A stretch of 64,000 nucleotides of DNA, taken from the NCBI GenBank assembly GCA_000091205.1, contig AP006497.2. The stretch is one strand, 5' to 3'. The stretch comes from Cyanidioschyzon merolae. Its lineage: Eukaryota. This document shows, piece after piece, positions 1,817 to 61,293 of this stretch. Numbering within the stretch: position 1 is the first letter of the stretch; each line of letters opens with the position of its first letter. Below the pieces are notes generated by a model that was not told the DNA's origin, ran no database searches, and saw nothing but the letters and a program-made list of their open reading frames with translations. A program made the translations under genes and the position numbers.

Positions 1817-4800
1817 TCAGAAATCGACACCTTCAATACGGTCTTCGATTTCGCGGTACAGATCCCGCAAGCGTTCGATATTCTCCTCGGAGGTTTCCCA
1901 GTAGCCACGGCCGTGTGCCTCCAGCATCGTTGTCACCATAGAGCGGAAGCTGTTGGGATTCGAGTCCATGAGCTTCTTCCGCATGGCCTCGTCGACAAAG
2001 AAGGTCTGGTTGGCGTTCTCATAGACCCAGTTGTCGACAGCGTCCGAGGTCACCGAGAACGCCATGGTGTTCCGCAAACGCTTGGAAAGTTCTCGCACAC
2101 CTTCGTAACCAGAGTTCACGAGTCCGTCGATCCACTTGGGATTCAGCAGTTTGGTCCGGCTATCGAGACGAATGGTCTCGTCGAGGCTGCGCACGGCAAC
2201 GTTCGCCGTCGTCGAGTCCGCGATATACGAGCGGGGCTTGCGCTTGTCACCCCGAAGGGCGGCAACCCACTTCTCGTTTGCGCCATCTGCATAATTCGAG
2301 ACGTCCGTCAAGGAGATCTCAGACGAATCCAGATTCTGCATCGTGACCTCGACGGTTTTGAGCGCCCGCTCGAAGCGCTGCCGCGCGGGAATCATGGCCC
2401 CCGGGCGATCACTATCGTAGGCGAAGGATTTGCGAGAGAGGTACTGTTCCTGGAGCTGCTGTTCATCGGTCCATCCTCCATTTTCAATGGCAATGCCAAC
2501 GTTCGCAGAATAACTGCCCGATGCATTCGAAAACACACGCGTTGCTGCCTCCCGTACACTGATGTTCTCCTCGGCTGCCTGCTCCAGGGCGTGCTTGCGC
2601 ACGTAGTTCATCTCGGGCGGTTCATCAGCCTCTGCTGCCATCTTGATCGCTTGGTCCATCAGCGCCATCTGGTTGATCAACAGATCGCGAAAGATGCCGC
2701 TAACCGTGACGACCACATCGATTCGTGGGCGTCCCAGCTCCGAGAGCGACACCAGCTCCACCCGGTTGACTCGTCCCGATGCGTCCGGCACCGGACGTGC
2801 CCCAATGAGCCACAGCACCTGGGCAATGCTCTGGCCAAACGACTTGATCGCCTCTGTGCCATAAAGTACCAGCGATACCGTCTCTGGCATTTGACCTTGG
2901 TTCGCGGCTGCTTCCCGCTCGAGCAGGCGCTCTACGACGACTTTGGCTTCGGCGAAGGCCGAACTCGTCGGAATCGACTGCGGATCCAGCGCGTGAATGT
3001 TCTTGCCGGTTGGGACGACGGCGGGGTTCCGGATGGGATCTCCCCCCGGACCCGGTTCGATGTAACGTCCTTGGAGTGCCTGCATCAGCGAACCGAGCTC
3101 GTTATCCTTAATGATCTGCTCTAGGCAGACCTCAAGGTACTCAAAGAGCGGCTTCAGGTCTCGTGCTGAGCACTGGGGAAAGCCGCTCTCCTCGAGCGCC
3201 ACCAGATACGTCGGTTTGATCGCTTCGGACAGGAACGATACCATCACGCGATCAATGCGTCCATCCTTGTTGACTGACTTGGAGACAACCCGCTCAACAG
3301 CGTTGCGGCACGCACGCTGAATGCGATCCAACAGCTCGACATCGTCTAGCGCTGTTGAGCGGTACAACTGCTCAATATCCCGATCAACAGACTCGGCTAC
3401 AATACGGGGCAAGGCCTTGAGTCCTTTCTCCGGCCGATCGACACCGGCGATATTCACGAGTGTTGCTACCGCCTCCGCCGCAGTCGGTGGTTTGCCTATC
3501 GTATGCAGCCCGATCGGCAACAAACGAGCTTCTATCTCCATGAGACGGGCGTAGATCGATCCAATAACCTGGTCCCGCTCTTGACGCGTGAGTTGATCGA
3601 ATCCGTCTACGGGCAAGTTGGGAATGTCTCGGTCGAGGTTGCACTGTCGAGCGGTTGCGACGATCGCTGCGCACAGTGCAGCAGCTCTGGACTCATTCGC
3701 ACGCAGTTCCTGGTACTCCCGGATAAGCGATTGACACTCTTTGAGTTCCTTGTAGAGGCCGGCGTTCTCTGCAGGCGGTGTAAGGTAGGAGATGATTCCG
3801 GCGTAGGAGCGTCGCTTCGCTATGGTTGCCTCCGAGGGATTATTCGCGGCATAATAGTAGAGGTTGGGTAGACCCCCGATGAGAAGGTCGGGGTAGCAAT
3901 CTCCACTCATGCCGACCTGTTTGCCCGGCATAAATTCCAGACTTCCATGCGTTCCAAAATGAATCACCGCATTCGCGTCGAAAATCTTCTGCAACCACGT
4001 ATAGCAGGCTGCGAATCCATGATGCGGCGATGCAGACTTGGAGAACAGCAGCCGCATAGGGTCGCCTTCGTACCCGAAACTTGGTTGCACGACCACGGCG
4101 ACATTTCCGAACTGTGCACCGTAGACCAGCAGATTTGTGCCGTCGGTGTTCAGGGTACCGGGAGGCGGACCCCAGTGCTCCTGCAATGAACGCTGATACT
4201 CACATAGACGTTCGTATTCGGATACAGGCATTCGATAGAGCACGTTGAGTTCAGGCGAGCTGATTTTGGCCTCGCGATCGTGCAGTACGCGCTCCATCAA
4301 CGCATCAACAGTCTCGGGAATATCACCGACGGTATAACCATCCAGCTTCATTGCCTGGAGGACCTTGTGGATCGAGCCGAACACGTCCAGATAGGCCGCG
4401 GTACCGACATTGCCCTTGTCTGGTGGAAACGAGAACACGACGACTGCAACCTTCTTCTCGCGGTTCTTCATGCGTCCAAGTTGGGCCCACTTCAGCGCTC
4501 GTGACGCCAGCAAATGAATGCGATCGTGCAGTGGAATACTCCGCCCTGTGAGTCCGTCTCGCCCCGCATAGATGAGCGGCTCGATCGCGCCGTCCAGCTC
4601 AGGCAGACTAACCTGTAATGCAGTCTGAATCGGATGCAGTCCGAGCTCGCTTCGCTTCCACTCATCAAATGTCTGGAATACAAGCGGCAGCGAGCAAATG
4701 TATGGGCGATTCAGGGCTTTGAGGGCTGCAACTGCGCGCGGATGGTCCTGTTTGGCGGGACCCCCAACCAGCGCAAATCCCGTAAGCGACACAACGACGT

Positions 4801-6091
4801 CGACCAGGGGCACTGCTGTATTCAGCGCATAAAAGAAACGGTTCACTGGCTCGCTGAAATCCAGGGCTCCCGAGAAAATCGGGATTACTTTCGCTCCACG
4901 GGCCTCCAGTTCCTGGATGAACGACACATAGTGACAATCATCTTTGGTGACCAGATGAGAGCGCTGCAGTACGATGCCGATGGTGGGCGCATCATTCGCA
5001 AGCCTTGCTCGCGGAGCGTGCTCCTTGTCGTACCAACGTATGTACTCGGTGACGTCCTCAAACATCTTGGGTGCCACAGGATGCCAGATTCCTGCATCCG
5101 GAAACAGGACCGGATCCTTCACTTCAAACTGGAAGCTCTGAACATCCTGAACGTACTTGGATGCAACCATTAAGATCATGTTTTCGAGGTTCTCTACAGT
5201 GCCCCCGAGCCAGTACTGAAAAGAGAGCATAAACGATCGCGCATCCTGAGCCTTGTCGCTCGGCAAGTACTTAAGCACCTTTGGCAGAGTGCGCAGCAAG
5301 CGAAGCATTTGGGACTCGAAGTCTGCACCCTGTTGTTCTCGCCGTTTCTTCATGATCTGCCCGATGAACGATGTCGTAGACTGTCCAGTCTGGTTCAGTT
5401 GGCCCATACTAAAAGCCCCGAGTTTGTTCAGTTTCATCACCGGAGGTAAGGACGGAAACACGACGCATGCATCGAGACGATCTCTTACAGGCGCGACGGC
5501 GGCGACGACCTTGTCGGCAAGCTCTTGGACAAAAATCAGAGATCCGATGAAAATGTTCGCATCCGCAATATCGCGCTTGAAGGCGTTGTAGTTGGCCTCG
5601 TTTCGAAGCTCCTCCAGGAGATAGCCACTCAGTTCCACCGCCATGTGCTCCTGTTTCGCGTTGATCTTTCGAACCGCAGCCGTCAGCGTCGACTGGTACT
5701 GCGACTCCAACACGACATATACAATTTTGACCAGTTTCCGTCCTTCTAGCACTGGAGGTACAATGTGCCTGTCCTCTGGCTTCGACGCCGTAAACAGGCC
5801 GCCTGGCGCTCCGGCCAGAATGCCCGTACCGTCGTCATTCACACCGTTTCCACCAGCGTTCCAGTTCACTGCAGCACCCGTACCTTTACGGCGCTCGTTC
5901 GCAGCAGTCATCACCGACCGAGTGCGCATCTGTTGCGAGCGGCGGCTGCTCGAAGGCAGCACCAGCGGCCCCCAGGCTGAGGTCTTGCCCCACTGGTGCA
6001 GCGGCTGCACGGAACCAGCTTTCACAGCAACACCGGTTCCTAAAAAGCGCTTCTGCAACGTGGTACTCGGCGCTACAAAGCTAATCTCCAT
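1817..6091 (-). CDS. CHLH: Magnesium-chelatase subunit H (ChlH; CobN/Mg-chelatase family), 1424 aa, single uninterrupted ORF
   Basis: A 1424-aa ORF with a proper ATG at complement 6089-6091. The long protein ends in ...[69 protein letters not shown]. Its length matches plant/algal ChlH (~1380 aa). The N-terminus [11 protein letters not shown]... looks like a plastid transit peptide with an FVAP motif. Confidence 0.92.
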
Positions 6092-6650
6092 ATTTAACGC
6101 ACGGTGGAATGTTTACCAGACCCTACGCTGGACGGAAGAAGCGTTCAGGTTGTGAAGCGTACACTACTTCTCTTCGTCAAACGTGTCTACTATGCGCAAG
6201 CCTCTGCACACGTGACAAGATGCTACGAGTTACTATACGCTCCAGGGAACGCTGAACTAGAAAATATCAAAACCAGACGCCAAGCCACAGCAATGCTATG
6301 CGCTCGTAGCAAAAGAGCGCGATAGGTTGTAAAGTGACCCGGAGATCAGTTCGACGAGGGCATGCGGCGGTGCAGTCGCACCTGCGCGTATCAGCGACGG
6401 CAGGAACGGCGGCGACGATCAGAAAACGACCGATGCAGAAGCGTTGAGGGCCGCATTGCGCAGCGCCCCGGATGGTGACCTGAAGCGTTCCTCCGGAGGT
6501 GCAGGGAAATCAGTGGAATAAAATGGATATTTATGGATAGAGTGCGTCGGGATCTGATTCTTATCTTCACGAAACGATGACATCGGGACCATGGATCCCC
6601 GAATTCGGAATCTATGATGGCTTTCGGGAAAGCGTCCACCATGAAGCACT

Positions 6651-8560
6651 TTCCTTCAAGTTCCATTACCCATACTTGCTTTCGGATAAACAGGTCTTTT
6701 CATAGGTTCCATCCAGCGGCGAATGGCTGCCTTGAGCACTCGCCGTAGCGCCTGCACCGCTCAAGCAGATGCTGCATAGAGAGTCAGAGGGGCTCTGCAA
6801 TACCACAGAGGGCGTCGGCTCGAGGCGTCATTCATTCAACCTCGACTCGACATTCATAATGAAACTGGGAGCCTGCAAGCGCTGCTGACAGACCTACTGT
6901 CTGCGGCAGCGCGAAGCAACAGACTAGGAGTCCACTGCGACCAGGGCGACGCCCAGACGCAGTAAAGCGGCGTCTAGACCCAGAATGAACTGCGTTGCGG
7001 AAGAGTTGAACAGGTCTCACGAAAGCACCTGCCACTGGAGGAAGCATAAAGCGCGACCCGGGCAGACTCGTCCAGGTCGCGGGACCTTCCGCCTAGGGGG
7101 TAAGCTTTTGACGGCATCGGAAACTTTCCCCTCGTTTCACGTCTATCGTAAAGCGGGGAAGGAATCGTTATCTCGTTGCAATGTAGTGGTACGTTGCTGT
7201 TATTTTGTCTATACGGCGCTCGACAGGCGCACCTGGAATATCTGGCGGTCACGAGACAAGACGGATATCTCGCCGTTGAAGGGAAACCCGATCGTGATCA
7301 TTTGCGTGTTGCTCTGACGTACATGTTGTGTTTGCGTTACAGTCGTGCCAAAGTACAGTATTTCATCTCGATGGTGTTTCGACCATCAAGCAACGATATT
7401 CCGGTAGTTTTCGCGCAGTTTGTATCAGAAGCGTTCAAAAAGCGTTCTTTTTCAAAAAAACAAAAAAGGAAAGTTTTGGAGAGGCAAGTCGTCGATCCCA
7501 GAGGCCAAGTGTCACCGGATGCCGGAAAAAGCGGAGAGCACTGCCGAGCCCAGAAGCACTGGAGAGGACCGCGACGCGGAAAGTGCATGAGAACGACTTG
7601 GTCGTTGGTGCAGACGCCGGACACACGAAGATCCGTAGCCATCGCGGTTCGCGAGTGTGCGGAAGATGGCATGGACGGTAACCTACGTCCGAAAGACATG
7701 CGGCTTTTGAGCTTCTCGAGAGCGAGATGCTATCGAGAATCTGGAATCATGAATGCAAGGACAAAAATCGAGACGTGGAACGCAGGAATGAAGGATCACG
7801 TGGAAGCTTCGAGCGATGTGACGAGCCGAGGAGCAGACTTTCAAACTTTTCTGAAATGCATGGAAGTTCGCGTCGCTGACTGGGAGGCGCTGTGGAAAGC
7901 GTATCCAAAGCCCCGGTGGGCTCGTCTGCGTATGCGTCTATACTGTGGGAAGCAGCGCGCATTCGCCAATTTTTTCAATCCACTGAACGCCTTGAAGGAG
8001 GACGAGGGTCAGAGGCTCCTAGTAGCGTACGGAGCAGGGCGCTGGATGACCCAAAACAGGATATACGCCAGCTCCAACAACAAGAACGTACAAGGAGCGC
8101 GCACGGCGTTTTGTCACCATACCGATAGATGCGTTCCGAACATCGTACACACACCATGAGCTGGGCTGCACGCTTCAGAGGGTCGAGATAGAAAAGTGCC
8201 AGCGGGGCCCTGAGCATTTAAAAAAGTACGGAGCGCCGACGGAAGAGCAAATGGAAAGGAGGGCAAAAGTGCGAGAGCTACTCGCATTAGTATATACAAC
8301 CAGTGATGGCAAGAAACGTATGGAATTCGTGAACCGAGACTTGAACGCCGCTATCAATATTCGGAGAAGTGCGGTGATGGGGAAAAGACCTCCAGAGTTG
8401 ACAGGAGAGAATTTTGTGGGGCAGCGTCTCATGGTCGAATTGTACAGAATGAAAATGAAGCCAGTTGTAGGTGGCCAGTCGAGCGAGACAGTGAGGCTTC
8501 GGCGTTTCAGTTGGAGACGTTTTGTGTAGGGCGCGTTTGCCGCCACTGCTGTATACCGCT
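6651..8560 (+). mobile_element. TnpB/Fanzor-like RuvC-nuclease element, copy 1 (high-identity block; true ends uncertain)
   Basis: Direct repeat of 16372-18280 at about 99% identity overall (see the patchwork finding for how identity varies along the element). It encodes a multi-frame ORF set with a RuvC-I-like motif LVVGADAGHTKI and a RuvC-III motif FVNRDLNAAINIRR. I see no terminal inverted repeats. Weaker (~60%) similarity continues at least 60 bp beyond both edges. Confidence 0.55.
7328..8529 (+). CDS. TnpB/Fanzor-like RNA-guided-nuclease homologue, read across three frames
   Basis: Frame 2 (7328-7681) gives ...KVHENDLVVGADAGHTKI (G-x-D-x-G, RuvC-I-like). Frame 0 (to 8159) gives ...NALKEDEGQRLLVAYGAGRW...ASSNNKNV...FCHHTDRC (RuvC-II/bridge-like region with Cys residues). 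Frame 1 (8050-8529) gives ...ELGCTLQRVEIEKCQRG...KKRMEFVNRDLNAAINIRR (RuvC-III D-x-N-A-A-x-N-I). The frame switches are identical in copy 2, so they are more likely introns than random decay. The span is the sum of ORFs 7328..7681, 7176..8159 and 8251..8529. Confidence 0.5.
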
Positions 8561-9175
8561 GCGCCACCGTGTTCCCATGGAAGAGAAATTTCGAAAACTT
8601 GAAGACTGCGTGACTGGGAGCTTCTGCACACGAATTCGAGAGTATATCATTTGCTCTCCGATGCCTTGTTCGACGGCGTCGCGAATCTTCATGTTTCCCG
8701 TGGCGTATCGAACTGCAGCGGTAAAGATCCCAGGTATCCATTCCGAAAACCCGACCGAGAATCCTAAAACTACCTTTGAGTTCTCAAGTCCGTCTCTTTA
8801 TATTTCGAATGTCGACTTTGGAAATCACGGAATAAAACATTCAGAAAAAAATGCAAAGCCACGAACACAGTGCGAGCATCTCCCAATCCACTTGTAATCC
8901 AGGATTGGCGTGGTATCATCTGCGCGCTGTTGATGCAGCACTAGCACCAATACGCTGGTCTCTCAGGAACTCAAGTCGGTTGGGTCCTAAAAACCACCAG
9001 CGTGGGAGGAATTTTCATCTGTCCGTGCTAACCGCTTGGCTGTTTCTTTGAACCAGTGGCGGGAAGCAAGGCTCGGTTCACTAGGACGAGTCTAGCGGAG
9101 CGTTACGGTGCTGATCGAAAGGCCGTGCCGCTCTACCGCCGAGCACTCCGAGTTCATGTGGCTGGCTCTTTCGAC

Positions 9176-15931: not shown

Positions 15932-16371
15932 CCACGAGCAGTGCGAAAGGGCAAGTACTCGGAGCCTGGAAACACAGCGTCAGTGCCAGTTCGAGACTGA
16001 GCGACCTGCGTCCGTCTTGGTAGAGGTTTTCAACTTGGCAGGCTCGCGAAGCCGACTTTTCGGTTAAGGGACGCACTGTTGCTGCTCTTTAATCCTAACG
16101 AGAGCTTGCCTCTTCAGCAGAGACTACCGCGTTCCAATAGCCCCGCAGTAAAGTTCGTGAAGAGAATAGAGTCTGGTTTTTCACGCGGCTCTGCGGGGGT
16201 AGCGTCTACCGCTGGTGTTTTAAGAAAAAGCGGTACGATGTGTGGTTTTGGAGCAAAAGAGCATCGCGCAGCGTAGATATGTCCTCGATGACAGAACGTC
16301 TCCATTGATCAGGGATCCCAGATTGCGGGATGGATTTCGGCAAGCGGGAAAGTGTTTATGAAACTGTACCC

Positions 16372-18280
16372 TACCTTCAAGTTCCATTACCCATACTTGC
16401 TTTCGGATATACAGGTCTTTTCATAGGTTCCATCCAGCGGCGAATGGCTGCCTTGAGCACTCGCCGTAGCGCCTGCACCGCTCAAGCAGATGCTGCATAG
16501 AGAGTCAGAGGGGCTCTGCAATACCACAGAGGGCGTCGGCTCGAGGCGTCATTCATTCAACCTCGACTCGAGATTCGTAATGAAACTGGGAGCCTGCAAG
16601 CGCTGCTGGCAGACCTACTGTCTGCGGCAGCGCGAAGCAACAGACTAGGAGTCCACTGCGACCAGGGCGACGCCCAGACGCAGTAAAGCGGCGTCTAGAC
16701 CCAGAATGAACTGCGTTGCGGAAGAGTTGAACAGGTCTCACGAAAGCACCTGCCACTGGAGGAAGCATAAAGCGCGACCCGGGCAGACTCGTCCAGGTCG
16801 CGGGACCTTCCGCCTAGGGGGTAAGCTTTTGACGGCATCGGAAACTTTCCCCTCGTTTCACGTCTATCGTAAAGCGGGGAAGGAATCGTTATCTCGTTGC
16901 TATGTAGTGGTACGTTGCTGTTATTTTGTCTATACGGCGCTCGACAGGCGCACCTGGAATATCTGGCGGTCACGAGACAAGACGGATATCTCGCCGTTGA
17001 AGGGAAACCCGATCGTGATCATTTGCGTGTTGCTCTGACGTACAAGTTGTGTTTGCGTTACAGTCGTGCCAAAGTACAGTGTTTCATCTCGATGGTGTTT
17101 CGACCATCAAGCAACGATATTCCGGTAGTTTTCGCGCAGTTTGTATCAGAAGCGTTCAAAAAGCGTTCTTTTTCAAAAAAACAAAAAAGGAAAGTTTTGG
17201 AGAGGCAAGTCGACGATCCCAGAGGCCAAGTGTCACCGGATGCCGGAAAAAGCGGAGAGCACTGCCGAGCCCAGAAGCACTGGAGAGGAGTGCGACGCGG
17301 AAAGTGCATGAGAACGACTTGGTCGTTGGTGCAGACGCCGGAAACACGAAGATCAGGAACCATCGCCGTGCGCGAGTGTGCGGAAGATGGCGTGGACGGT
17401 AACCTACGTCCGAAAGACATGCGGCTTTTGAGCTTCTCGAGAGCGAGATGCTATCGAGAATCTGGAATCATGAATGCAAGGACAAAAATCGAGACGTGGA
17501 ACGCAGGAATGAAGGATCACGTGGAAGCTTCGAGCGATGTGACGAGCCGAGGAGCAGACTTTCAAACTTTTCTGAAATGCATGGAAGTTCGCGTCGCTGA
17601 CTGGGAGGCGCTGTGGAAAGCGTATCCAAAGCCCCGGTGGGCTCGTCTGCGTATGCGTCTATACTGTGGGAAGCAGCGCGCATTCGCCAATTTTTTCAAT
17701 CCACTGAACGCCTTGAAGGAGGACGAGGGTCAGAGGCTCCTAGTAGCGTACGGAGCAGGGCGCTGGATGACCCAAAACAGGATATACGCCAGCTCCAACA
17801 ACAAGAACGTACAAGGAGCGCGCACGGCGTTTTGTCACCATACCGATAGATGCGTTCCGAACATCGTACACACACCATGAGCTGGGCTGCACGCTTCAGA
17901 GGGTCGAGATAGAAAAGTGCCAGCGGGGCCCTGAGCATTTAAAAAAGTACGGAGCGCCGACGGAAGAGCAAATGGAAAGGAGGGCAAAAGTGCGAGAGCT
18001 ACTCGCATTAGTATATACAACCAGTGATGGCAAGAAACGTATGGAATTCGTGAACCGAGACTTGAACGCCGCTATCAATATTCGGAGAAGTGCGGTGATG
18101 GGGAAAAGACCTCCAGAGTTGACAGGAGAGAATTTTGTGGGGCAGCGTCTCATGGTCGAATTGTACAGAATGAAAATGAAGCCAGTTGTAGGTGGCCAGT
18201 CGAGCGAGACAGTGAGGCTTCGGCGTTTCAGTTGGAGACGTTTTGTGTAGGGCGCGTTTGCCGCCACTGCTGTGCACCGC
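16372..18280 (+). mobile_element. TnpB/Fanzor-like RuvC-nuclease element, copy 2
   Basis: Direct repeat of copy 1. The ORFs 16897..17880 and 17972..18250 match 7176..8159 and 8251..8529. The last ~850 bp are identical; differences cluster around 17280-17400 (G-x-D-x-G is retained: LVVGADAGNTKI). The right edge lies ~50 bp upstream of the DUF1992 ORF. Confidence 0.55.
17049..18250 (+). CDS. TnpB/Fanzor-like nuclease homologue, copy 2 (multi-frame)
   Basis: Same frame structure as copy 1, with RuvC-I-like VVGADAGNTKI and RuvC-III FVNRDLNAAINIRR. Confidence 0.5.
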
Positions 18281-18325
18281 TGACGACTGCTTTCGACTTT
18301 TGAAAGGCGTTTGCTAGCGGTGTAA

Positions 18326-19222: not shown

Positions 19223-21427
19223 CGGTTTCATGGGATGTTTATGAACATACGGAGCGCCTTTACAATCGATAAAGGTCATAGCGGTCAAGTATCTAGTGGT
19301 CGTTGATACCGATGATATTTGCCATGGCGAGCATGATGATGAGAATGAGCATCTTCACGCGATGGATGTGCGATGCATCATACAGTAGATCATGCGTTCG
19401 TCTACGTTGATCCGATAACGCTCATGTCAAAATACAGTTCGATGGGATCGGGTAGACAAGTCAGGTGTACGTCCTTAAATTTCATCTCTTCCCATTGTAA
19501 TAAACACCAGTCCGTGTCGGAGTTTTTTGCAACTGCTCACTTGTCGTCTCCCTCGTACCGCTGGCTTTCAATTAGCTGGTACCTCCTAGTCCTGCAGCTC
19601 GGTCGCCAACTCTTGAGAACTGTTTACCGCAGCGTTCAGGTCCGGTATTCTGCTGCTTACTCCTGTTGTGCACCAATTTCGTGCACAGACAAAGGTTGCG
19701 ATCTAGGCCTCACCTGCCATGTTCATCGTTCCTGTGCACATTTTTGGTGCGCTCGTCACTGCTGTGACACTTAGTTGTGGTCAGGTGCTTCCGTGTGACC
19801 GCCGCTTACGCTTCTTTGCGCGTCACCCTGTGGCGTATAAACGCTTGCCTTATCGCTCAGTGCATGCCCTCTACGGATACGGAAGGCGTCCACAGATTCC
19901 CGCATCCGTTTCTGGAACTCGAGCCATTTCCTGCGATCCTGGGCTTGTCATCGTCAATGCTTTCGGCGAGTACACTGTCTGCTGCATGCGCTAGCGCACA
20001 CTGTCCCAGGCAATACAGGGCTTATGGAACGCAATGTTGCCCGTGATGAGAAAAGTACCGGAAGTAAAATCCAAGCCGGAGAACAAGTAAGGAAAATTCG
20101 GTCCGCCTGTCCGCCGTTCGTGCAAGGCGACGATGCACGCTCCACTGGAAGCAAGCGCTGCGATGCCTAAACCACGAGTCGAGCAACCCTTTCCACGCAA
20201 CTAGAAGAGATCGAAGCCTCTGTGAGCACATCTCACGGGGTGTATCATGCTGCCGTCGAATCCTGACTTGTCGATGGCCACACAGTCAGGATGATTTATC
20301 ATTCGATCTGAACTGATTTTTCGACCTGAAAAGTTACGGGTACTTTCTGCATGAGCTTATAGAAAAGGCCGTTAACCAGTGGCGTCCAGTTTATGCCTTG
20401 TCAATCAAGCCGCGCAAATAGCTACGCCCGCGAATTGCCCTGAAACAAAAAATTCGAAAACCTGAATCACGCGTGATTTCAGCATGCTTCTCGCAAGGAA
20501 ACAGGATGATTCGAGCCGTGTCCATATGCATCGGATTCTGATATCCATCATTTCACGAATCCTTGTTCGAAGGTTTCCAACATCCTTTTGTTTTCCATAA
20601 CGCTACAAACTCCAGCTGCAAATCACGAAAGCAACCCCTCGAAAATTCAACAGAAAACCGGTTTGCGCATTCCTGAACTCGTTATGGATGAACCTCGATG
20701 TCGAGACTGTACATCTAGCAACCATTTCAAACAAAAATAGTTATTCATAGACAGCGCATGTATCTCGGTAAACATCGATCACAGGGATCCGCGGCGCGCG
20801 CGCTCGCTCGCGCATCTGGCACAATCGATCCAAACCTGCACGCACGCGATGCCAGGAGCGATACTGCCCCGCGATTCGACGCAGCGGCGATGCGCGGATT
20901 CCCAAGCAATATATCTGGCAGGGGCGCGGAGCGTTGCCGGTTGAACGCCGCCTCGGTCGGTGTGCTGCGTGGCGAAAGGCGGCAGCATGCAGCGCAGCGC
21001 CGCCTGCGCAGCACGGGACACGTGTACGAACGCCTCCGCTGCGCATCCGTTTTTTCGCGTAGTGCCTGCTCTGGACGCTTGCTGTGACGCGTCATAGACC
21101 CTGGGGCTTGCTCTCTCTGTCTCTCTCTGTGTGTGCGCGCGCTTGGGTGTGCCCTTGTGCTGTACAACTGTCGCCGTTACGTAGGTGAGTTGTCAGACCG
21201 TTGGCACGCGTTTGTGCGCGCGCGAGTCAACTGGTGTCCGCACAACGTTTCGGGTGAGACGCGTAGAGGCTGCTGAGCGGACGCGTGTGTATCTGCAAAC
21301 CTGCCCTGCGTGGCGCCTAGACTCGCGGGAGACACGCGTCTGGAACGGTGATCGACGTGGTGGAAGGAACGCGTGGTGCTGGTGCGTGAAGCTTGCGTGT
21401 TTTTCACGAGCTGCACCTGCGTGCGGA

Positions 21428-28670: not shown

Positions 28671-28762
28671 ACTGAAAAAATAACACAAAAAAGTAAGACA
28701 AGAAAAATGCGCATCCTCGGAGAACGCTGGCTTAAGGAAACGTTTTGTCCATGAGAAAAAAA
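28671..28762 (+). mobile_element. Short poly(A)-tailed retroposon copy (SINE-like or 5'-truncated retrocopy), 92 bp, flanked by a 12-bp TSD
   Basis: A perfect 12-bp direct repeat tccatgcggcat at 28659-28670 and 28763-28774 brackets the insert exactly. The insert ends in gagaaaaaaa and is about 85% identical to 44621-44710. It contains the micro-ORF MRILGERWLKETFCP* (28707-28754). Confidence 0.6.
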
Positions 28763-31472: not shown

Positions 31473-32299
31473 AGAGAGAGGCTGGGAATCTTTGATGATG
31501 CGACTGGTAGCAGCTTTGAGGAAAGCATTCACCGTTCCACGCCTTAGTCGTCAGAATTCCAACACCCTTGCTTTCCCGCGGAGATACTGGTTATTCCTCG
31601 TGTTCGCTCGAGCGCCAAGTGCATCGATTGCGCGTCCACAGTGACGTCTGTAGCGCCGGTGCGGACACAGCACGAAACCAGAGCGGCTTTTGTCATGCCA
31701 CTGAGTATCTTGGCTCGAGACGGGCGCGTTTGTGCCGCTACGGGCGCTTTTTATTGAGCGCATCGACACCCTCCGGAAGGTTGCCGGACTGGATGCGGGA
31801 GAAGTGAAGCGCCCTAACCTTATGATCGTAAAATGATCAGAACTGTATAGATAGTGTTGCACCGCTTTCGTTCGCGAAGAGGACGCCTCCGCTGCCTGGT
31901 TTCTTATAGTTTTTCAACTCATTTATGTTCCAGTACCTCTGCGATATAGAGCAGGAGATCGAAATCCGGTTTTAATGTATCCTACAGATCGTAGACGAAT
32001 TGCCTGTAGGATATATATCGTCTACTGAACAATGCAACTAGAACTGGATTCCTCTTTCGGGTCAGTCGTACCGCAGTTTGCAGATCGTTAGGGAACACTG
32101 AACTGAACAAGTATATGCGCTCCGCGCCAAAACCCGATATTCTCAAAGCGTGCTTGCGTTCACTAGCGGAGAACGACCCGTCGACCACCTTACGGAAAGC
32201 AAGAGCGACAATAGTAGCTGCCGTAGACGTCCCAAATTCTCCACACTTTGTTTGTAGGGTCCTGAAAACACTAGGATAAAGTCATATAAAAAAGTCCTA

Positions 32300-33300
32300 G
32301 TTCGCGGACAGCATTCTTCGGATGATATCGCAACGACAGCGTTCCTGGAACGTCTCGATCGGTATGAAGCACAGGGACATGGGCTTGTTTTTCCAGTTGA
32401 TGAGACTTGCTTGGAACGAACCGAACGGTACATATTTGAATATTTGCGGAGAAGAGTGCCCTTTATATGTTCGATCTAGCTCGAAGAGAATGAGGACGTC
32501 ATCTTCTGTTCTATCCGCAGTGGATACGATTCGCAGCCTCGATTTCGCGCACAGAGAACGCTCATACAACAGGATTCGCTTCGTCATATCATTGAAGAAG
32601 ATTCCGCGGACGTTTTGCAACGTTCTTCTATCGGACAACATGGCATTTAACCATTCCTGTTGCGATCGAGTTTTTGCCGATTCTATCTGGGTTACTGCTG
32701 CTTTTCATTCATCCGCACACTCCGTGCTCCAAGTCTATCCAGAGGATGTTTTCTATCACGAAAAGGCATGATCGCTTTACGGAGCGAGTGTCAGCAGCTT
32801 TCAGCACATGGTGACACTGGGGCAGATATCGTCTACCTTCCGCAAATCCGTCCTCCTCGGGGAAGGTACGCACCAAATGGCATAAACAACTGTGTTCATT
32901 TTAAAAAATTACGGGATGAGCTAGGATGCACATTTCAGAAGGTCGGGATGAAGAAAAGCCCGTGGAGCGCTTCGGCGCTAGAAAAGCACAGAGAGCTGAC
33001 AGCGCACCAAACGGGACGGAGGGTACGACGTCGAGGAATCCTTGCATGGATGCGTTCAACCAGTTGCAATCAATGCATGGTATTCGGGAACCGACACTTG
33101 AACGCCGCTATCAATGCCAGCTGATGTGTGCGGTGCAGAAGACGCCACCCGAGGCGCTGACGCGATCCAACTTGTATGCCACAGCCCCTCAGTCTCGAAG
33201 TGTACCTGGATACATCGAAACCGATTGCAGTCTCTCGAATAATAAAAGCAAGGAAGCATCGGCGAGAGTATCTATATGTAAATAAGCGTATGAATAGGTG
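32300..33300 (+). pseudogene. Degenerate third TnpB/Fanzor-like copy (frameshifted, catalytic-site substitution)
   Basis: ORF 32660..33124 ends ...ELGCTFQKVGMKK...AWMRSTSCNQCMVFGNRHLNAAINAS*. This aligns with copy 1 ...ELGCTLQRVEIEK...TSDGKKRMEFVNRDLNAAINIRR. The Asp of D-x-N-A-A is replaced (NRH versus NRD). The downstream peptide AVQKTPPEALTRSNL (copy 1 AVMGKRPPELTGENF) continues in a different frame. The region is AT-richer than its surroundings. Confidence 0.5.
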
Positions 33301-33696
33301 CCCGCCATGGTTGTGGAACGATCGTCATGCTGCTGATCGCATATGCCACACGCCAAGCCATCCATACCACTTCCTCACAATCGGCGAGGAAGCATGCAAG
33401 AATGTATTTCAAATATATTTTCTAAATGAACTACCAGGAAAGTGACCTTGCCCCATTCAGGTACACAAAGCGTGGCAGATGTTGTTCCAAAGGCAGCAAA
33501 TATCGATCATCATACGCTGTGCATGGCCAGGGGCGCGGTGATCCGCCAGCATACGCTCCTTGGGGCATGCCTTGCAACGCGCGCTGGTGATGAACGAGCT
33601 TCAGCGCCTCTTGTTCGTCGTTTTTTGCTTACGTGCTACGGGGTATACGGTGCCGTGCGCTTGAGGAAGAGGTTAGTTTCTTCATAGTCACACGGT

Positions 33697-35133
33697 ATGG
33701 GAGAGCATCGGGTGAACGTGGCGTTTACGTTGGCACCAGTGCAGCCGCCCTGCTTCTCCAGTTATCTGAATGTGACTCGAGCTTGGAGCGCCGATGCCGC
33801 AAGCCGTGCGACGCGTTTCCGGTATCAGGGTACGTCACCGTACCCGAGACAGCGAACACTGTTTCTGAACTTTTTTCATCGACAGGACATGGTTCCGTGC
33901 GGGTTTGCAGCGCTGCACCCATATCACCGGACCTGCAGGTGGCGCCGATCTTTCATAAAAAGCGCTCGCTCCTGCTGCGCACGAGCGGAAGCTATCGCGC
34001 GCGAACATCCACCAGCATCACATGAACCGCTAGTGCGCTGCAACGGGAAGGCTTCGTGCTTCGGGGCCCGCCGAACACGACCTGGTGTAGCGGGAGCCGC
34101 TGGGGCTCCGCGCTTCCCCGGAGCGCTCAGGGCGCACCCCGTGACCGCGAGTCTCGGCATCGCGCTGGTGCTTTTACTCGCGGCGTTGCACAGTCCGTCT
34201 GTCGCAAGCGCGGCCCCAGTTTTCCACGCCAGCAACCTACAAAGCCTGGGCACTAAGATGCTTCATTCCTTCGCATCGGGTTACGCATCGTCGCTAGCAC
34301 TGGTTTTCTTCTCCGAGCTCGGGGACAAGACTTTCTTCATCACCGCTTTGCTGGCCATGAAGTACCATCGAACGTCGATTTTCATTGGCGCCATTGCGGC
34401 GTTATCCCTGATGACCATGATCTCCGTGGTGCTAGGTCAACTCTTTCACGCGCTTCCACCGCTTGTGACGTCATATATCCCATTCGATGACTGGGCAGCG
34501 TGTGCCCTGCTAATCTTCTTTGGCGTATCAAGCATTCGACAAGGTTTGAAAGCGCGAGCAACACGAGCTGGTCCAGGATCGAAAGCAGAAACACCAACAT
34601 CGCTCGACAGCAGCAGTGCCGGCGCATCCGAGCGATCAGGGACGCTTTCGGATTCGAGGTCTACATCTGCGCAAGCTGAAGAGCTTACGGAAGAGGCAGA
34701 AGCAGCGAAATTCATTCGGGAACGAGAGGAGCGTTTGCTGAGCACCAGAAGCCGCCCGGCCTCTGCAACAAATACGCAGATGAGCGACAAGACGCGCGAG
34801 CATCCCCGTCTGAGCCAGGCAGGTGCCGCGCTAGCCGCCATAGCGATGCCGCTAGCATCACATGCGCAGCTCGCTGCTGTCGTCGAAGCGTTCACGCTCG
34901 TCTTTCTCGCGGAATGGGGTGATCGCAGCATGCTCGCCACGATCGCGCTCTCTGCAGCAAAGAATCCTTTTGGAGTAACGGCCGGGGCGATCAGCGGACA
35001 TCTGGTCGCTTCACTCCTGGCCATTCTTGGCGGAAGTGTTCTCGGGCGATACTTTAGCGAGCGCTTCGTTTCCCTAGTCAGCGGCGGGCTGTTCATCGTC
35101 TTTGCCGTCATGACTTTGCTTGGAGTTTTCTAA
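33697..35133 (+). CDS. UPF0016-family cation (Ca2+/Mn2+) transporter, GDT1/TMEM165/PAM71-like, with a long N-terminal extension
   Basis: Two copies of the E-x-G-D-[KR]-[ST] motif in TM helices: [19 protein letters not shown] and [19 protein letters not shown]. An acidic/Ser-rich loop lies between the two halves. The ATG start at 33697 is verified. Confidence 0.8.
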
Positions 35134-44585: not shown

Positions 44586-44710
44586 TTGGGAGTAGGGGGT
44601 TGATGCATACCTCACCGCGCACTGAAAAACACACACAAAAAAATAAGAAAAGAAAAATGCGCATAATCGGAGAACGCTGGCCTAAGTACACATTTTGTCC
44701 ATGAAAAAAA
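44586..44710 (+). mobile_element. Short poly(A)-tailed retroposon copy (longer, 125 bp) flanked by a 12-bp TSD
   Basis: A perfect 12-bp direct repeat tcgcacaggaac at 44574-44585 and 44711-44722 brackets an insert ending in catgaaaaaaa. Its 3' 90 bp match 28671-28762. It contains the micro-ORF MRIIGERWPKYTFCP*. Confidence 0.6.
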
Positions 44711-51382: not shown

Positions 51383-53147
51383 AGGCACTGGCTGGGGCCG
51401 AGCACCGCCACCCGCGCCAGCACCGCACTGGTTTGGTTTCATTACGAGCGCACGAAGATTGTCGAGTGTTTCTTTCCAGTGCAGGCGGTCTCGGGACGTA
51501 AGCGCCAACCATATCAGAGTCGTGAGCAGTGCCTTGCTGGCAACTTTGGCTGGAAGACGAGCGGCAGAAATGCCGGCTTTTGCGGGCAAAGCAAGCAGTT
51601 CTGGTGTATTCAAAGACGGTGCCTGGAGCAGGTACATGCTCTAGTGATGGTCTAAACTCGTTTCAGATGAACATGGAACACTGAACGTTTCGCTCTGTTC
51701 CAGCCTGGAGCATTTGTTTCGGAATGTGTTGGTATGAATAGCATGGCATTCGAGCTGGAATCAGACTGGCTTGATTCTTCACATGTAGGTATAGGATTTT
51801 GCGGGGTCGTTCATTCGGGGTGACCCCTTCGATGCTTTGCCTATGGTACGCGTTACGTCACCAGAATCATGACAATTGGTGACACTTCCAAACAGAAATT
51901 CGTGAAATAAGCACTATGATCATTCATTGCATACGTATAGGTTCACGATTGAACCCGTTTCTTGATACGGACCATGATCAAAATATGCATGCTTCAAGCT
52001 TTCGACCTCTACGTTTCAAAGCTACTCGCAGGTGCAGCAACGCAGGCCGCCGAACTGCCGAGAAGCGGCAACTCGGCGTCGTTCCAGGACAGTTTTTTCA
52101 AAACCTCATGCCGAACGTTCCCTGACCTTGTCGCGTCGCATCAAGAAATTCGAAGGAAGGAACAGTCACGCCTGGTTCGTGGCCAGCGACGGAACCGCAT
52201 TCGACAACAGCAGCGTGATAGCACTCGCGTGTCACGCTCCCCAGAGCTTCCGTCGGTACAGATTGCATGGAAACGAGCCTTGGAAACGGACTTGAGTCAT
52301 CGCAGTGATCGCTTTCTCTGGGGAATCCGTCATCGTTTTGCAGGAAGCGTGCGTAGATGGATCGAAGTCTCTCTACTTGTTCTCGTAAGGCGATGCTGCT
52401 TCCGGTGCTTATTTCATCATGGACCACAGCATCGTACTCAACACATGCTTCGTTGAATAGAGCAGCATGCGCTGGTATCTGCTGCGGACATGGTACTCGA
52501 CGAATGAGCATCGCTCCAGAGAAGCAACCCCTGAACGTTGGGTATGGCGTCAGGCGCAGAGACGCAGCAGAGCGCATGGACGGGAGTCGTCGGTGCCCAA
52601 CGACGTCATGTACGGAGCGGTGAAGTAGGTGTTCGCAGGCCACACAGAGTCGTTCTTGGAGAAGCATCTCTGGCGGACACGTATCTCTAAGCACCTGAAC
52701 AAATCCAAGCGTCAACGCGACGACGGGCGCACCCAAGCTCTGAACCCAAAACATGAAAGCGCCAGTCGAAACGTAGATCACAACGAACGTCGACGCATTC
52801 AATACGTCGCCACCAGCCAGAAAAGTAAAAGCATACGAACTTGAATGTTGGTATGAACATCTTTCGCTACTGCAGAGAACGGAGCTGGATGAAAAAAGAG
52901 AGGCATCTGGAATGAACGCTCGCGACAAGAGAAGGGTACCAGAAGCAGTCGCAGACCCCAGCGCCCAAATCTGGTGTTGATGACAATGGAAGGAGACACA
53001 AAGCTTCGTATGGACGCCCGAGTCAGCATAGTGGGATCATTGTACTCTATGCTGACGCAGGTAGAGTTGGAATGACATGCTTTGACCTGCGTCCGTGTAC
53101 ACGTGGCTGCTTAGGTGCATCCGTACGTCGGTGCGACATGGTGTAAC

Positions 53148-56590: not shown

Positions 56591-57571
56591 TTACCGACGA
56601 TGAATCGGAAGCAGTGCCTGGTTCCAGGCAAGAGTCCAGTGGTCGCTATCCTGGTCATTGATTGCTTGTTCGGAAGTATTCCGAATTGGAGCAAAATGCT
56701 TACACCGAATACGAAACGCTTCCCGCGAAGCTTCGCTCCATGCAATGCTGGTGGAAGCTCCACAAAGCACGAGACACGAACGTATGTCCCTAGCGGCCTT
56801 CAAGTCTCGATGCGGAAAGTGCTCGTGTGCCTGTGTTCCGATGCAATTCCACCTTAGTAAGGCATTGACGTGCGTATGCCTCACCAGGTGACATTCGGTC
56901 AGGTTATTCTCGTGCGTCAGCGCAAGCGACTGTCCCTGTTTGACGCACCTCTTCTCTAACTGTTTCAGAGCATATTGCTGCTCGTCATGCGCGAATGTCG
57001 TCTGGAATTCATCGATGGCATTCGTACAGAGTCGATTCTCGCATTCGAGGTACGATCTCGTTAACGGTGCCAGTCTACGACGTATTCGCACCACAGCACG
57101 CCCGGCGTCATTGACGACAACCACCAAAGGATGCGACTTGCCGATTGTTTCCTTTTCCAACACACTGAAAAAGTACGCGAATGAACGCTGCTTGCTCTTT
57201 TGCGACAGCGACCGTTGGCGCGCACAGCGCTGTCTCATAGGCTCCTGCCAAGGAGCTTCCGCCCGGGTCACGAGAACGCTCGTGTTCACTCTGAACGCAG
57301 CGTAGAATCCACGACATACGTACTGACTTTCTCTGTGGCAGCAAGCTGGTGGCAGGTACAACGCCCACGCGGTGCGCTTCGTGACGCGCTCGACACTGAC
57401 CCGTCTCTGGTGTTGGCTTTTACGGTTGGTTTTGATGCTTTCTGGCATCAGCGCTGTTGATCTTCCGATCATAAGCTCGACATGGTAACGCTTCCAGGTA
57501 TTCTGGGATACGCTTGAGCGCAAGTCGCGGATGCGACGATCAGGCAGTATGCTATGTTCTGTACTGAGCAT
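56591..57571 (-). CDS. Hypothetical protein (326 aa), no recognised domain
   Basis: A long ORF with a verified ATG at complement 57569-57571. Confidence 0.35.
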   Translation of the reverse strand: MLSTEHSILPDRRIRDLRSSVSQNTWKRYHVELMIGRSTALMPESIKTNRKSQHQRRVSVERVTKRTAWALYLPPACCHRESQYVCRGFYAAFRVNTSVLVTRAEAPWQEPMRQRCARQRSLSQKSKQRSFAYFFSVLEKETIGKSHPLVVVVNDAGRAVVRIRRRLAPLTRSYLECENRLCTNAIDEFQTTFAHDEQQYALKQLEKRCVKQGQSLALTHENNLTECHLVRHTHVNALLRWNCIGTQAHEHFPHRDLKAARDIRSCLVLCGASTSIAWSEASREAFRIRCKHFAPIRNTSEQAINDQDSDHWTLAWNQALLPIHRR

Positions 57572-59357
57572 CAGTTGTGTTGGCCTATGAATGGTTCATC
57601 GAAAAGTTGCCGAGAGAGACATGGACAGCTGGCATCTCAGCGTCCCGAACTCGTTCGAACAGTTGCTTGACGAGGTGCGTCGAGTTGACTGAAGCTGGGC
57701 GAGCCTTTCTTCGACTAGGGAGCTACATGCACCCTGATTACATCCTGCGTCTTTCGGTGCCGCGGATGCGAACGATTCGTTTATGGATCCGCAAGCGTAA
57801 AGCAGACGTTTTCAAACATAAAAGATGCGTTCGACGATACCGAACCAGGATGAATAGCCCAGAACAGAGGGCAGCTTCATGACGATTTTGACTAGGTGTG
57901 CCTCGGCCACATCCTTGCGTCGTGGTAGGTGACATGCTCTGGGTGCCGCAGCAAAGTCTATGCGAAGGACAAACCATGAAGATCACTTGGACGAAGGATG
58001 ACGTGATGAACGATCCCGTCTATTTTGCGATTTTCGAGGCGTCCACACACACACACACACACAATGGAATCGCCCGCGTGGCAGCTGTTGTTGATATCTT
58101 CGCTCGTCCCGGCTTTACGAAGAGCGGCTTGACCCGCTTCGAGTACCAGTATACCTGTGTAACCATTTTTCTCTGATGTCGTCTCATCGAGTGAGCCAAA
58201 GACTCGTCATGCCCGTTACATGGATCCGCATTTGAGTACGAAATCGATAGTGGATTGTTGAGCGCTCGACAGTCCCGCATGGAATCATGTTCTCTCCTGT
58301 GTCCATCCGTGTCGCTTCAATGCCGTTCGTATCAGCAGTACGGAAACTTCGCATCCTATGGCTCCTTCCGTCGTGTTTCGTAACGCACATCTGGAGTGGA
58401 ATGGATTGACGAGAAGACCGTCGTACAGCTAGTGTCTGAAAAGTTCTGTTGTGGGTGCATGATGCCTGGGACAAAGAAGACGACGAGAAGAGGCCGGCAT
58501 CCAGCTGCAGATGGTAGAGTAACGGACTTGGACGAGTCAAGCACCTCTGACACGCTAGCACTGCCATCATCGACTCTCTCAGTAAGCTTTCTCCAATCTA
58601 CCGATGTCAATGCATCTGTGAAATATCTGCGAGAGACACCAACAAAACAAAAAGAGCGTACTGGTCCAGACATCGCAGAATTCCCTGCCCGGAGGCTAAC
58701 AATCCAGCCGAACGCATGTCTCTCGATGGAGGCCAGCACTCGCGCTCTCCCAATGCTCTGCAGGTGCACGCACCGTGGAGCGCAAGTGTGTAGGAGTGTT
58801 TGGTGCCTCTTACAGACCGCAGTCACGAAATCCGTATCGCTCTATTCACTAGACCCTCGTATGTGCCCGAGCGATATTCCATCGACTTGCTACTGGTCCG
58901 GGGCCGCCCGCTTATTCCATCACCAAGACATACCGAGGTGAACCTGCGACGCCCACAACGAAGCCTGTTCCCTCGGACGATAATGTCGCACCACGAATGC
59001 GGTAACGCTTTTGACAGTTTGGGTATTTAGCAAACACGCAGCTCGAGCTGTACCGAGCGTCAATCTTCTCTATCCCAGAAGACATTGACCGAATCAGAGA
59101 CCGATATCGAGATGGCAAAGCGCGACCCACACCCATACACTTACACATCCGCCTGAAGCGAGATGAGGAGCGGTTCCTTGCGCACTCACCACTCCGGGAC
59201 CGTACAATGTCTATACGCTAAACATGACAACGCTGCACAGCAGAATATCTGTTGACCCTTGTGGTTATCTCTCGGACTTGGCCACAGCGTACGTCTCATG
59301 GAAGCGCGTTCTCGCTGGACCAAATGCTCGAATGGCTCTTCGTCAATCGGTGCACGC

Positions 59358-59667
59358 GAACGCCTCACATCAGCACGAATAGAGCCTAGGTACGTCATGA
59401 AACGAACGCCTAAAGCCCTGAACGCCTCACATCAGCACGAATAGAGCCTAGGTACGTCATGAAACGAACGCCTAAAGCCCTGAACGCCTCACATCAGCAC
59501 GAATAGAGCCTAGGTACGTCATGAAACGAACGCCTAAAGCCCTGAACGCCTCACATCAGCACGAATAGAGCCTAGGTACGTCATGAAACGAACGCCTAAA
59601 GCCCTGAACGCCTCACATCAGCACGAATAGAGCCTAGGTACGTCATGAAACGAACGCCTAAAGCCCT
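59358..59667. repeat. Minisatellite: 62-bp unit x5 perfect tandem copies
   Basis: The unit gaacgcctcacatcagcacgaatagagcctaggtacgtcatgaaacgaacgcctaaagccct starts at 59358, 59420, 59482, 59544 and 59606. The array overlaps the stop codon of the coiled-coil gene on the minus strand. Confidence 0.95.
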
Positions 59668-60650
59668 GTGGCTTTCGACGTGCCCTCTCGTTGGGTATTT
59701 CGGCCGCGATTCCATTCCCCGTCAAGGTCGTAGAGACGCAACTCCAGCGCTCTGTTTCGTCTTTGCAATGTTTCCACCTCGTCAGAGAGGTGAAGTGACT
59801 TGAGCTTGAGGGCTTCGTAGGCCTCTCGCGTCGCATCCAAGGCTGTCTCAAGCTCTAGAACTCGCTTTCGGAGCGACTGCACTTGGTACTCAAGTCGCTC
59901 TCGTTCCGACTCTGCATTGGCGGCTGCGACTTTGGTCTCGACCAGCAAGCGCTCATAATCTTCTAAAGACGAAGGTTCCACACGTAAAAGTTCAGCGATA
60001 GACAGGCGCTCGACTTGTTCGGTATCCCAGTTCCCGGTTGATGACGTGGCTGGCGTCGGGCGTTGGCGTGACTCGTCGACACGGTCGTGCTGCAGCGTGT
60101 CCCCAGAAGTCCCGATACTGAGGTGTTCAGAACAAGTCACCAGCGACTTTGCCGGAGAGCACGCTTGTTCCGCGACGCGCCTCCGACTTGATGCTTCACG
60201 CGTTTCACCGGGGACAGCTTCCAGCGGCTCTTTTGAGGTGCGGCTCGATGAGCAAGTGTCAGCTGATGCGCAGCCTCTGTCCGTGCCGCCACGCGCTGCC
60301 AAGGCGGCTGTCGTGACTTGCACTCCAGGCAGCGATTCGTCTGTACATTCGTTGCTGAGAGCGTTTGAATTGAGGCCCGTCGCGTGTTCACCTCGCGTTG
60401 CGTCTCGACCGGTGGGGCAGCGCGCACTGGACGCGTCGCTTCCAGCGCTCGTCGACATGGGTAGGCAAGCGACTTTTGCCTTTTCTAAAACCAAAACCGG
60501 TACCGACCAACGGTGCACCCTGGTGCTGGCTAGTGTGTCTCTCGTCGGCTTGAGCAGCACGTTCACACACCGTCTCCACTGTGAGGCACAACGAAGCGCT
60601 TTTCCACGCGTCAACTCTCTGAAACGTCCAGGTAACGCGCACCGATGCAT
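59658..60650 (-). CDS. Hypothetical protein with a C-terminal coiled-coil
   Basis: The ATG at complement 60648-60650 is verified. The C-terminal ~110 aa (...LEDYERLLVETKVAAANAESERERLEYQVQSLRKRVLELETALDATREAYEALKLKSLHLSDEVETLQRRNRALELRLYDL) has heptad-like periodicity. The N-terminal half is Ser/Thr-rich. Confidence 0.45.
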   Translation of the reverse strand: MHRCALPGRFRELTRGKALRCASQWRRCVNVLLKPTRDTLASTRVHRWSVPVLVLEKAKVACLPMSTSAGSDASSARCPTGRDATRGEHATGLNSNALSNECTDESLPGVQVTTAALAARGGTDRGCASADTCSSSRTSKEPLEAVPGETREASSRRRVAEQACSPAKSLVTCSEHLSIGTSGDTLQHDRVDESRQRPTPATSSTGNWDTEQVERLSIAELLRVEPSSLEDYERLLVETKVAAANAESERERLEYQVQSLRKRVLELETALDATREAYEALKLKSLHLSDEVETLQRRNRALELRLYDLDGEWNRGRNTQREGTSKATGL

Positions 60651-61293
60651 CGCATTAGAAACGCTTTCATACCTGAACAGGTACAGCCAAGAGCATTCTG
60701 ACTGTTGGACTAGCGTACACTCATTTCATCGTAAATAGGAAAAAGATCGACAATGACTATTCACAAGTATACACTAAAGCACTGGTACTGTCCCTATTGT
60801 CATCAACATCGGCCTTTGCTCGCCTTTTCTATGACTGCTTCCAGTTCGGATCTCTTATCTCCGGCTTCAAGTACGTCAGTTTCTCAAGTGCCTCCAGATA
60901 CGTTCTCAGCAGTCCACGGATGTTGATGGGAGCGTTCAAGTCCCGATTTTGGAGCTTTCGGATGGTGTCAACATTATTTATGTTCTGGTGCAAGTTGCGA
61001 TCTACGCTTCGCTGGATATAGATAGAGCTTCTCTATGGAGAACCTCGGTACACCCTTCGCTGCAGGAACACTGGGCCATGGTCAAGTCTTTGAACATCTC
61101 GACAACGTGTTGCCTCTTCCTGGGTCTGCCCCGTTGCACGTGGATGCTTGCTTCATCGCCCAGCACATGCCCTTGACCGGTACATAGGGCTTCCATTAAT
61201 GCCCCACTTCGTATCGATACTTGGTGCAGTCCACACCGGTGACGGGACTCCTTCTGGGCGATTTGCCAGGCGAGTACGCTTGAAGCTGCACAC

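Follow-up and report, generated by a model that had tools for sequence, protein, structure and literature searches.

CMe-1A is the one Fanzor family given for Cyanidioschyzon merolae by Bao and Jurka, who reported ~150 copies that are ~80% identical to the consensus (Bao and Jurka, 2013, Mobile DNA 4:12, PMC3627910). The CMe-1A consensus is 3169 bp long and encodes a 734-aa protein. The element is without TIRs or determinable TSDs, and its class was for this reason left unknown (PMC3627910). The 5′ 635 bp of CMe-1A are common to a second repeat, TE-N2_CMe (PMC3627910). Proteins related to the CMe-1A product include the canonical Fanzor1 enzymes (SpuFz1, GtFz1 and PpFz). In SpuFz1 and TnpB, the NUC domain carries a CCCC zinc finger that Saito et al. 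(2023, PMC10432273) describe as conserved.

We analyzed a 64,000-nt stretch of the 902.9-kb chromosome 15 of C. merolae strain 10D (GenBank contig AP006497.2), hereafter the window, using as references the published CMe-1A consensus DNA and CMe-1 protein (supplementary files of PMC3627910). We identified a 3′-terminal relic of a CMe-1-family Fanzor1 element, copy 3, at 32912–33244 on the + strand (nhmmer E = 1.1e-33). The relic corresponds to consensus nt 2733–3065 and to CMe-1 protein aa ~611–720, a span that starts just past RuvC-II and stops near the C-terminus. A sequence-only reading of the window had assigned all of 32300–33300 to a Fanzor-like copy. That assignment holds for 32912–33244 and fails for the rest of the interval.

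Copy 3 shares its genome of residence with CMe-1A and is 71% identical to the consensus in DNA (K2P 0.36; 70–72% by blastn, with 70% over 292 nt). It is thus more diverged than the ~80% identity typical of the family. At the protein level, tblastn of CMe-1 on copy 3 gives 42% identity over 97 aa (E = 6e-13). A DNA comparison of 32916–33115 with two other copies in the window, copy 1 (8156–8358) and copy 2 (17877–18079), gives 69.8% identity over 205 nt (E = 1e-17). The ~67-aa alignment of copy 3 with copy 1 that had been proposed earlier is correct and applies to copy 2 as well.

The coding remnant of copy 3 is disrupted. An ORF of 154 aa (32660–33124, + strand) has a TTG start and ends in ...STSCNQCMVFGNRHLNAAINAS*, exactly as quoted in the earlier description, and its residues 1–85 have no Fanzor origin. 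The RuvC-III Asp is lost: the codon at 33095–33097 (+ strand) is CAC (His), versus GAC in other copies, and the motif of copy 3 reads N-R-H. Across the subfamily, 99% of sequences have Asp in this column, and the GAC>CAC change is fixed in every strain variant compared. Right after the ...AAINA codons, a gapped DNA alignment places a 2-nt insertion at 33119–33124 (+ strand; ~33119–33122, ambiguous within ~4 nt), which results in a TGA stop at 33122–33124 and a change of frame. Past this frameshift, homology runs on in frame 0 from 33121 (LMCAVQKTPPEALTRSNL) to ~33244. The same alignment shows a 3-nt deletion that adjoins a set of C-N-Q-C codons discussed below. With the nhmmer match, the CAC codon and the 2-nt insertion, the locus is indeed a decayed, frameshifted Fanzor-family fragment with catalytic loss.

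Masking the NAAIN core does not abolish the significance of the match. We masked NR[DH]xNAAIN on both sides and performed local alignment with 2000 shuffles. The masked alignment scored 123, versus 24.2 ± 3.8 for the shuffles (z = 26), a score reached by 0/2000. The segments on either side of the core were also significant alone (z = 20 upstream, z = 6.3 downstream). Chance similarity of copy 3 to Fanzor is ruled out by the nhmmer result (E = 1e-33) and the masked-core z score.

Most of the element is missing. Consensus nt 257–2732 and 3066–3169 are undetectable at the copy 3 locus by nhmmer and alignment, so copy 3 is a fragment rather than an element, and ~18% of the 3169 bp of CMe-1A is recognizable. 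Homology begins six residues past the DEF motif, and the RuvC-I Asp and RuvC-II Glu are accordingly absent. Together with the Asp-to-His change, copy 3 retains 0/3 of the catalytic residues of canonical Fanzor1. A tblastn comparison found no upstream match to any Fanzor lineage. The right terminus (the last ~100 nt of the consensus) was not found downstream, where the alignment scores the same as the average shuffle.

We also identified a fragment of the 5′ end of CMe-1A/TE-N2_CMe (consensus nt 27–256) at 31485–31720 on the + strand (nhmmer E = 8.1e-18). This fragment is collinear with the 3′ relic, has the same orientation and lies 1.2 kb upstream. Both pieces are unusually diverged when compared with copies 1 and 2 over identical intervals: K2P to the consensus is 0.46 versus 0.21 for the 5′ fragment and 0.36 versus 0.145 for the 3′ relic, a 2.2–2.5-fold excess in both. 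Copy 3 is older than copies 1 and 2. Based on orientation, collinearity and equal divergence, the two fragments probably derive from opposite ends of a single, ancient insertion; the 5′ fragment could instead be a separate TE-N2_CMe copy. The long residence of the family in the C. merolae genome, deduced earlier from copy 3, agrees with what the published copy number (~150) and identity to the consensus (~80%) had already established (PMC3627910).

Between the two fragments lies a 1.19-kb, AT-richer spacer (31721–32911, 47.6% GC). The spacer matches no part of CMe-1A (nhmmer, blastn) and neither CMe-1 nor four divergent family proteins (tblastn). Pfam, NCBIfam and plasmid tblastn searches gave no match, and a search of 5.8 billion proteins returned only the same locus from other strains.

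The sequence preceding RuvC-III in copy 3 contains a Cys pair. The C-N-Q-C codons (TGC AAT CAA TGC, 33065–33076, + strand) lie opposite G-K-K-R in both the consensus and copy 1. The C-x-x-C that had been noticed before RuvC-III is real. By MAFFT alignment, C-N-Q-C occupies the column and has the spacing of the second Cys pair in canonical Fanzor1, where the counterpart is C-N-[DH]-C-x4-[ND]RD in CRe-1, CRe-4 and CVu-1. The first-pair region is absent from the relic, which leaves copy 3 with a single C-x-x-C, and the Pfam TNB match (E = 0.1) falls short of the cutoff. Copy 3 further differs from the consensus in a Trp that replaces Leu. In one strain variant (contig L007), a G>T change at 33087 would convert the Gly codon before N-R-H to Trp, as in canonical Fanzor1 (..TTWNRD); this is almost certainly a neutral polymorphism.

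We searched 1.84 billion representatives with a profile built from five intact family members and identified 3710 relatives (E ≤ 0.001). Motifs were counted among the best 149 of these 3710, of which 127 have a recognizable RuvC-III. None of the 127 has a C-x-x-C in the 14 residues upstream of RuvC-III, and the conserved pattern among these best 149 is RGLLWC.ST...KFVNRD.NAA.N. The first Cys pair after RuvC-II is likewise rare in the best 149 of 3710 (present in 8/117, absent in 109/117). The RuvC-II Glu and RuvC-III Asp are nevertheless 99–100% conserved in the subfamily (P0079–P0232). The pair before RuvC-III is also absent in 11/11 family proteins checked, among them the outgroups P0079–P0082 (31–43% identical) and all CMe-1A-type proteins that cover this region. 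While canonical Fanzor1 and TnpB have the CCCC zinc finger, the subfamily that contains CMe-1 is thus almost universally without both Cys pairs.

These counts reverse the polarity of an earlier suggestion, in which copy 3 showed that active copies had lost part of a zinc ribbon. With the pair in 0/127 relatives and 0/11 family proteins, its loss long predates the CMe-1 family, and the departure from the canonical design is ancient. The CCCC-less design characterizes a large subfamily of Fanzor1 (thousands of representatives) and goes far back in its history, rather than being a recent loss brought to light by this fossil. A subfamily of this kind with conserved catalytic residues may interest those who mine Fanzor proteins for genome editing more than the fossil itself.

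The absence of the pair from all 127 relatives makes C-N-Q-C most likely a secondary by-product of decay. We simulated neutral decay from the consensus DNA with the substitution rates observed for copy 3. Cys arose at exactly both positions with P = 0.35%, and any pair in the residues considered arose with a probability of ~1%. A chance origin is therefore unlikely in itself, yet it is far more parsimonious than retention. The exact canonical position and this low probability make coincidence the weakest link of the explanation.

Copy 3 might alternatively represent a separate, earlier-branching CMe-1 sublineage that kept an ancestral second Cys pair, later lost in CMe-1A. The column-for-column agreement of C-N-Q-C with CRe-1, CRe-4 and CVu-1 and the small simulated probability favor this reading, as do the 2.5-fold greater divergence of copy 3 than of copies 1 and 2 and its Trp, a residue with 94% conservation across the subfamily that 9/9 crown CMe-1A sequences have lost. 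Retained Trp and higher divergence make an early-branching (stem) position plausible, though weakly supported. However, blastp ranks the CMe-1 consensus first for copy 3 (E = 2e-16, 47% identity across 85 aa); 25 CMe-1A-type proteins come next, the matches after these drop to E ~ 1e-7, and copy 3 has the CMe-1-specific ~28-aa insert between RuvC-II and RuvC-III. With the pair missing from the 127 relatives and 11 family proteins, and with copy 3 grouping with CMe-1 in its best match and shared insert, a retained pair would imply separate losses in virtually all the lineages sampled. A metagenome scan for paralogues found none with the peculiarities of copy 3, only three orthologous loci (6.4 kb at 99.5% identity). 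A word-indexed search for homologues of the copy 3 peptide returned the same locus only. The phylogenetic placement proposed as a check gave a neighbor-joining tree (106 C-terminal columns, some distances saturated) with 22% bootstrap for copy 3 plus CMe-1A, weak for any placement. The claim of a different sublineage thus keeps its divergence and its Trp but runs against the best match, the shared insert and the lack of a paralogue in these searches, and we consider retention of the pair in such a sublineage very unlikely. A bolder form of the idea, to which we also assign a very low probability, would have copy 3 as a CMe-1 stem-lineage fossil that was inserted before the CMe-1A radiation and that keeps the ancestral Trp and conceivably the Cys pair, with the spacer as decayed cargo, possibly the missing transposase. 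If true, this cargo would begin to show to which superfamily CMe-1A belongs; Bao and Jurka left the element unclassified in the absence of TIRs and TSDs.

The spacer could also be read as a relic of an IS630/Tc1-mariner transposase, either in a composite mariner-plus-Fanzor1 element like PUl-1 or as a mariner inserted in a CMe-1 element. Mariner elements that contain Fanzor1 are known (PMC3627910), and a hand-stitched spacer translation gave one NCBIfam IS630 match (E = 0.036). Motifs like DE...DNxxH...PE were also seen by eye in the right order across two frames. The match scored 13.5 bits against a cutoff of 100, was not reproduced and disappeared when the translation was stitched better or when single-frame pieces were used, each of which drew a blank (Pfam, NCBIfam); the stitched frames had been picked by eye, which biases this single weak match. 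The spacer has no similarity to the PUl-1 transposase, to plasmid IS630 elements or to any protein outside the locus. A 21-nt imperfect inverted repeat (31829–31849 and 32883–32903), both arms of which begin with TA, is a candidate TIR; a binomial estimate puts its 16/21 matches at about chance level, with ~6 such repeats expected in 2.3 kb. We rejected an IS630/Tc1-mariner identity for 31721–32911 on the basis of the unreproducible match and the lack of PUl-1, plasmid or protein support, and regard it as improbable. Still less credible, to the point of being nearly negligible, is the idea that the ORF at 32660–33124 or a second one at 32926–33285 is a short Fanzor-derived gene with a function, through domestication or otherwise. 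Both frames are open (154 and 119 aa), and the 119-aa ORF is predicted as a gene by metagenome pipelines. Polymorphism in the relic is sparse in one comparison (1 in 289 bp), but it is not significantly low and amounts to 0.9% in a second comparison. Neither ORF is annotated in the reference genome, the longer one begins with TTG and neither has homologues outside the locus. Homology crosses the frameshift, and as a result neither ORF preserves the ancestral reading; a catalytic residue is gone, and RuvC-I and RuvC-II are absent.

We instead conclude, with high confidence, that copy 3 is a non-functional fossil of a CMe-1 Fanzor1 element that was inserted long ago upstream of the GDT1-family gene (33697–35133, + strand, exact protein match BAM81572). 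An ancient CMe-1 element would have inserted in the intergenic DNA that precedes this gene. What is still recognizable of it is ~235 bp of the 5′ end (31485–31720) and, presumably from the same insertion, ~330 bp near the 3′ end (32912–33244). The ~2.5 kb between them, with RuvC-I, RuvC-II and the N-terminal half of the nuclease, would have been deleted or replaced by the 1.19 kb of AT-richer DNA, and the last ~100 bp of the element, including the right terminus, would have been lost. Neutral drift of the coding remnant would then have produced the RuvC-III Asp-to-His change and the 2-nt insertion. Point substitutions, probably by chance, would have turned G-K-K-R into C-N-Q-C.

With RuvC-I and RuvC-II absent, RuvC-III mutated, the frame broken and the right end missing, no function is expected, and copy 3 appears unable to make a nuclease or a guide RNA. 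We found no RNA-structure signal at copy 3 (fold z = 0.13) and no Rfam or tRNA match. The region of the guide (omega) RNA and the right end has no homology to consensus 3066–3169, an indirect test, as the CMe-1 omega RNA is not itself defined. Four other strain-level metagenome contigs (99.2–99.6% identical) contain the relic, with every one of its lesions fixed. Strain polymorphism in the relic, 1–3 variable sites in ~300 bp versus a ~1% background, involves too few sites to speak to constraint. A 473-aa GDT1 variant was considered as a means of dating and discarded, as it comes from another strain (99.2% identical).

Copy 3 is an unremarkable remnant of a transposon family that was known before. 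Little is at stake at this locus, which adds one more dead fragment to a family whose identity, abundance and age were published in 2013. Relative to CMe-1A, it is set apart by the Asp-to-His change, the frameshift, the lost right terminus and the foreign 1.19-kb spacer.

Structural comparison confirms that the CMe-1 family is Fanzor1 by fold, independently of the assignment by Bao and Jurka. We used an AlphaFold model of the intact member P0079 (mean pLDDT 69). In a Foldseek search of the PDB, the top seven matches were SpuFz, PpFz and GtFz structures (E = 5e-14 to 3e-11, probability 1.00), and Cas12f and other Cas12 proteins ranked below these solved Fanzor1 structures. The D...E...RD residues of canonical Fanzor1 are conserved in the intact members. 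Sequence profiles are less sensitive here: the family profile had no match among PDB sequences, and Pfam TNB matches are sub-threshold for the family, intact members included (E = 0.06–0.2).

We identified a further, highly divergent Fanzor1 relic, copy 4, at 56706–57710 on the − strand (tblastn E = 2e-18, nhmmer E = 8e-15). Copy 4 is annotated as the hypothetical protein CMO230C (BAM81579.1; 56591–57571, − strand), with an N-terminal piece at 57435–57710. It is 33–35% identical to every lineage and reads ...IDEFQTT...HRDLKAARDI.... The annotated hypothetical protein CMO230C is thus a Fanzor1 relic.

Copy 1 (6569–8581, + strand) is a non-coding CMe-1A copy with an internal deletion, frameshifts and a RuvC-II Glu-to-Ala change, and copy 2 (16286–18308, + strand) is the same deletion derivative. 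Each is without consensus ~1001–2152, a 1.15-kb internal deletion, and is 79–85% identical to the consensus. At least three frame changes are needed to read from ATG to stop, with the start codon, RuvC-I motif, middle and C-terminus spread over different frames, and RuvC-II reads IDAFRTS in place of DEF. These copies had been taken as active; the deletion, the frame changes and the Glu-to-Ala change contradict this, and copies 1 and 2 of this window should not be treated as such. Like copy 3, they are dead CMe-1-family remnants that keep sequence from both element ends and have lost the middle. They differ in that theirs is a clean 1.15-kb deletion with both termini kept, whereas copy 3 is short of ~2.5 kb and of its 3′ terminus and has acquired unrelated DNA.

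Copies 1 and 2 lie 9.7 kb apart and share 1909 bp at ~99% identity. At their outer edges (~85 bp at the 5′ end, ~20 bp at the 3′ end) the two copies differ strongly, and both are still alignable to the consensus termini. Such homogenization of the interior but not of the ends points to gene conversion between a pair of older insertions rather than to recent transposition.

Base composition around copy 3 is uneven. An AT-rich tract had been described at 31.9–33.4 kb; the flanks are indeed AT-richer (47.6% GC at 31721–32911, 44.3% at 33205–33450), while the relic itself, at 55.4% GC, is at the window mean of 55.6%. Elsewhere in the window, a 1424-aa ORF at 1817–6091 (− strand) encodes magnesium chelatase H (exact protein match BAM81565).

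Several other repeats were detected. A lower-GC stretch with segments at 19817–20098 (− strand) and 20720–20938 (+ strand) has a marginal nhmmer match to the 5′ region of CMe-1A/TE-N2_CMe (E = 1.5) and, in the same area, two collinear weak tblastn matches of the PUl-1 mariner transposase (E ~ 0.9). These segments are possibly more decayed repeats, or noise. Tandem arrays occupy 59358–59668 and 61230–61741, on the right-hand side of the window where GC content is lower, with units of 62 nt (copies 100% identical) and 64 nt (copies 95–97% identical). Two pairs of imperfect inverted repeats, one of 104 nt (51958–52061 and 62021–62124) and one of 92 nt (52337–52428 and 61659–61750), are 76–77% complementary and enclose ~10 kb, within which lie copy 4 and the tandem arrays. 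Finally, an A-rich, 90-nt direct repeat (28671–28760 and 44621–44710, 87% identical) is also found in the orthologous strain contig L007.
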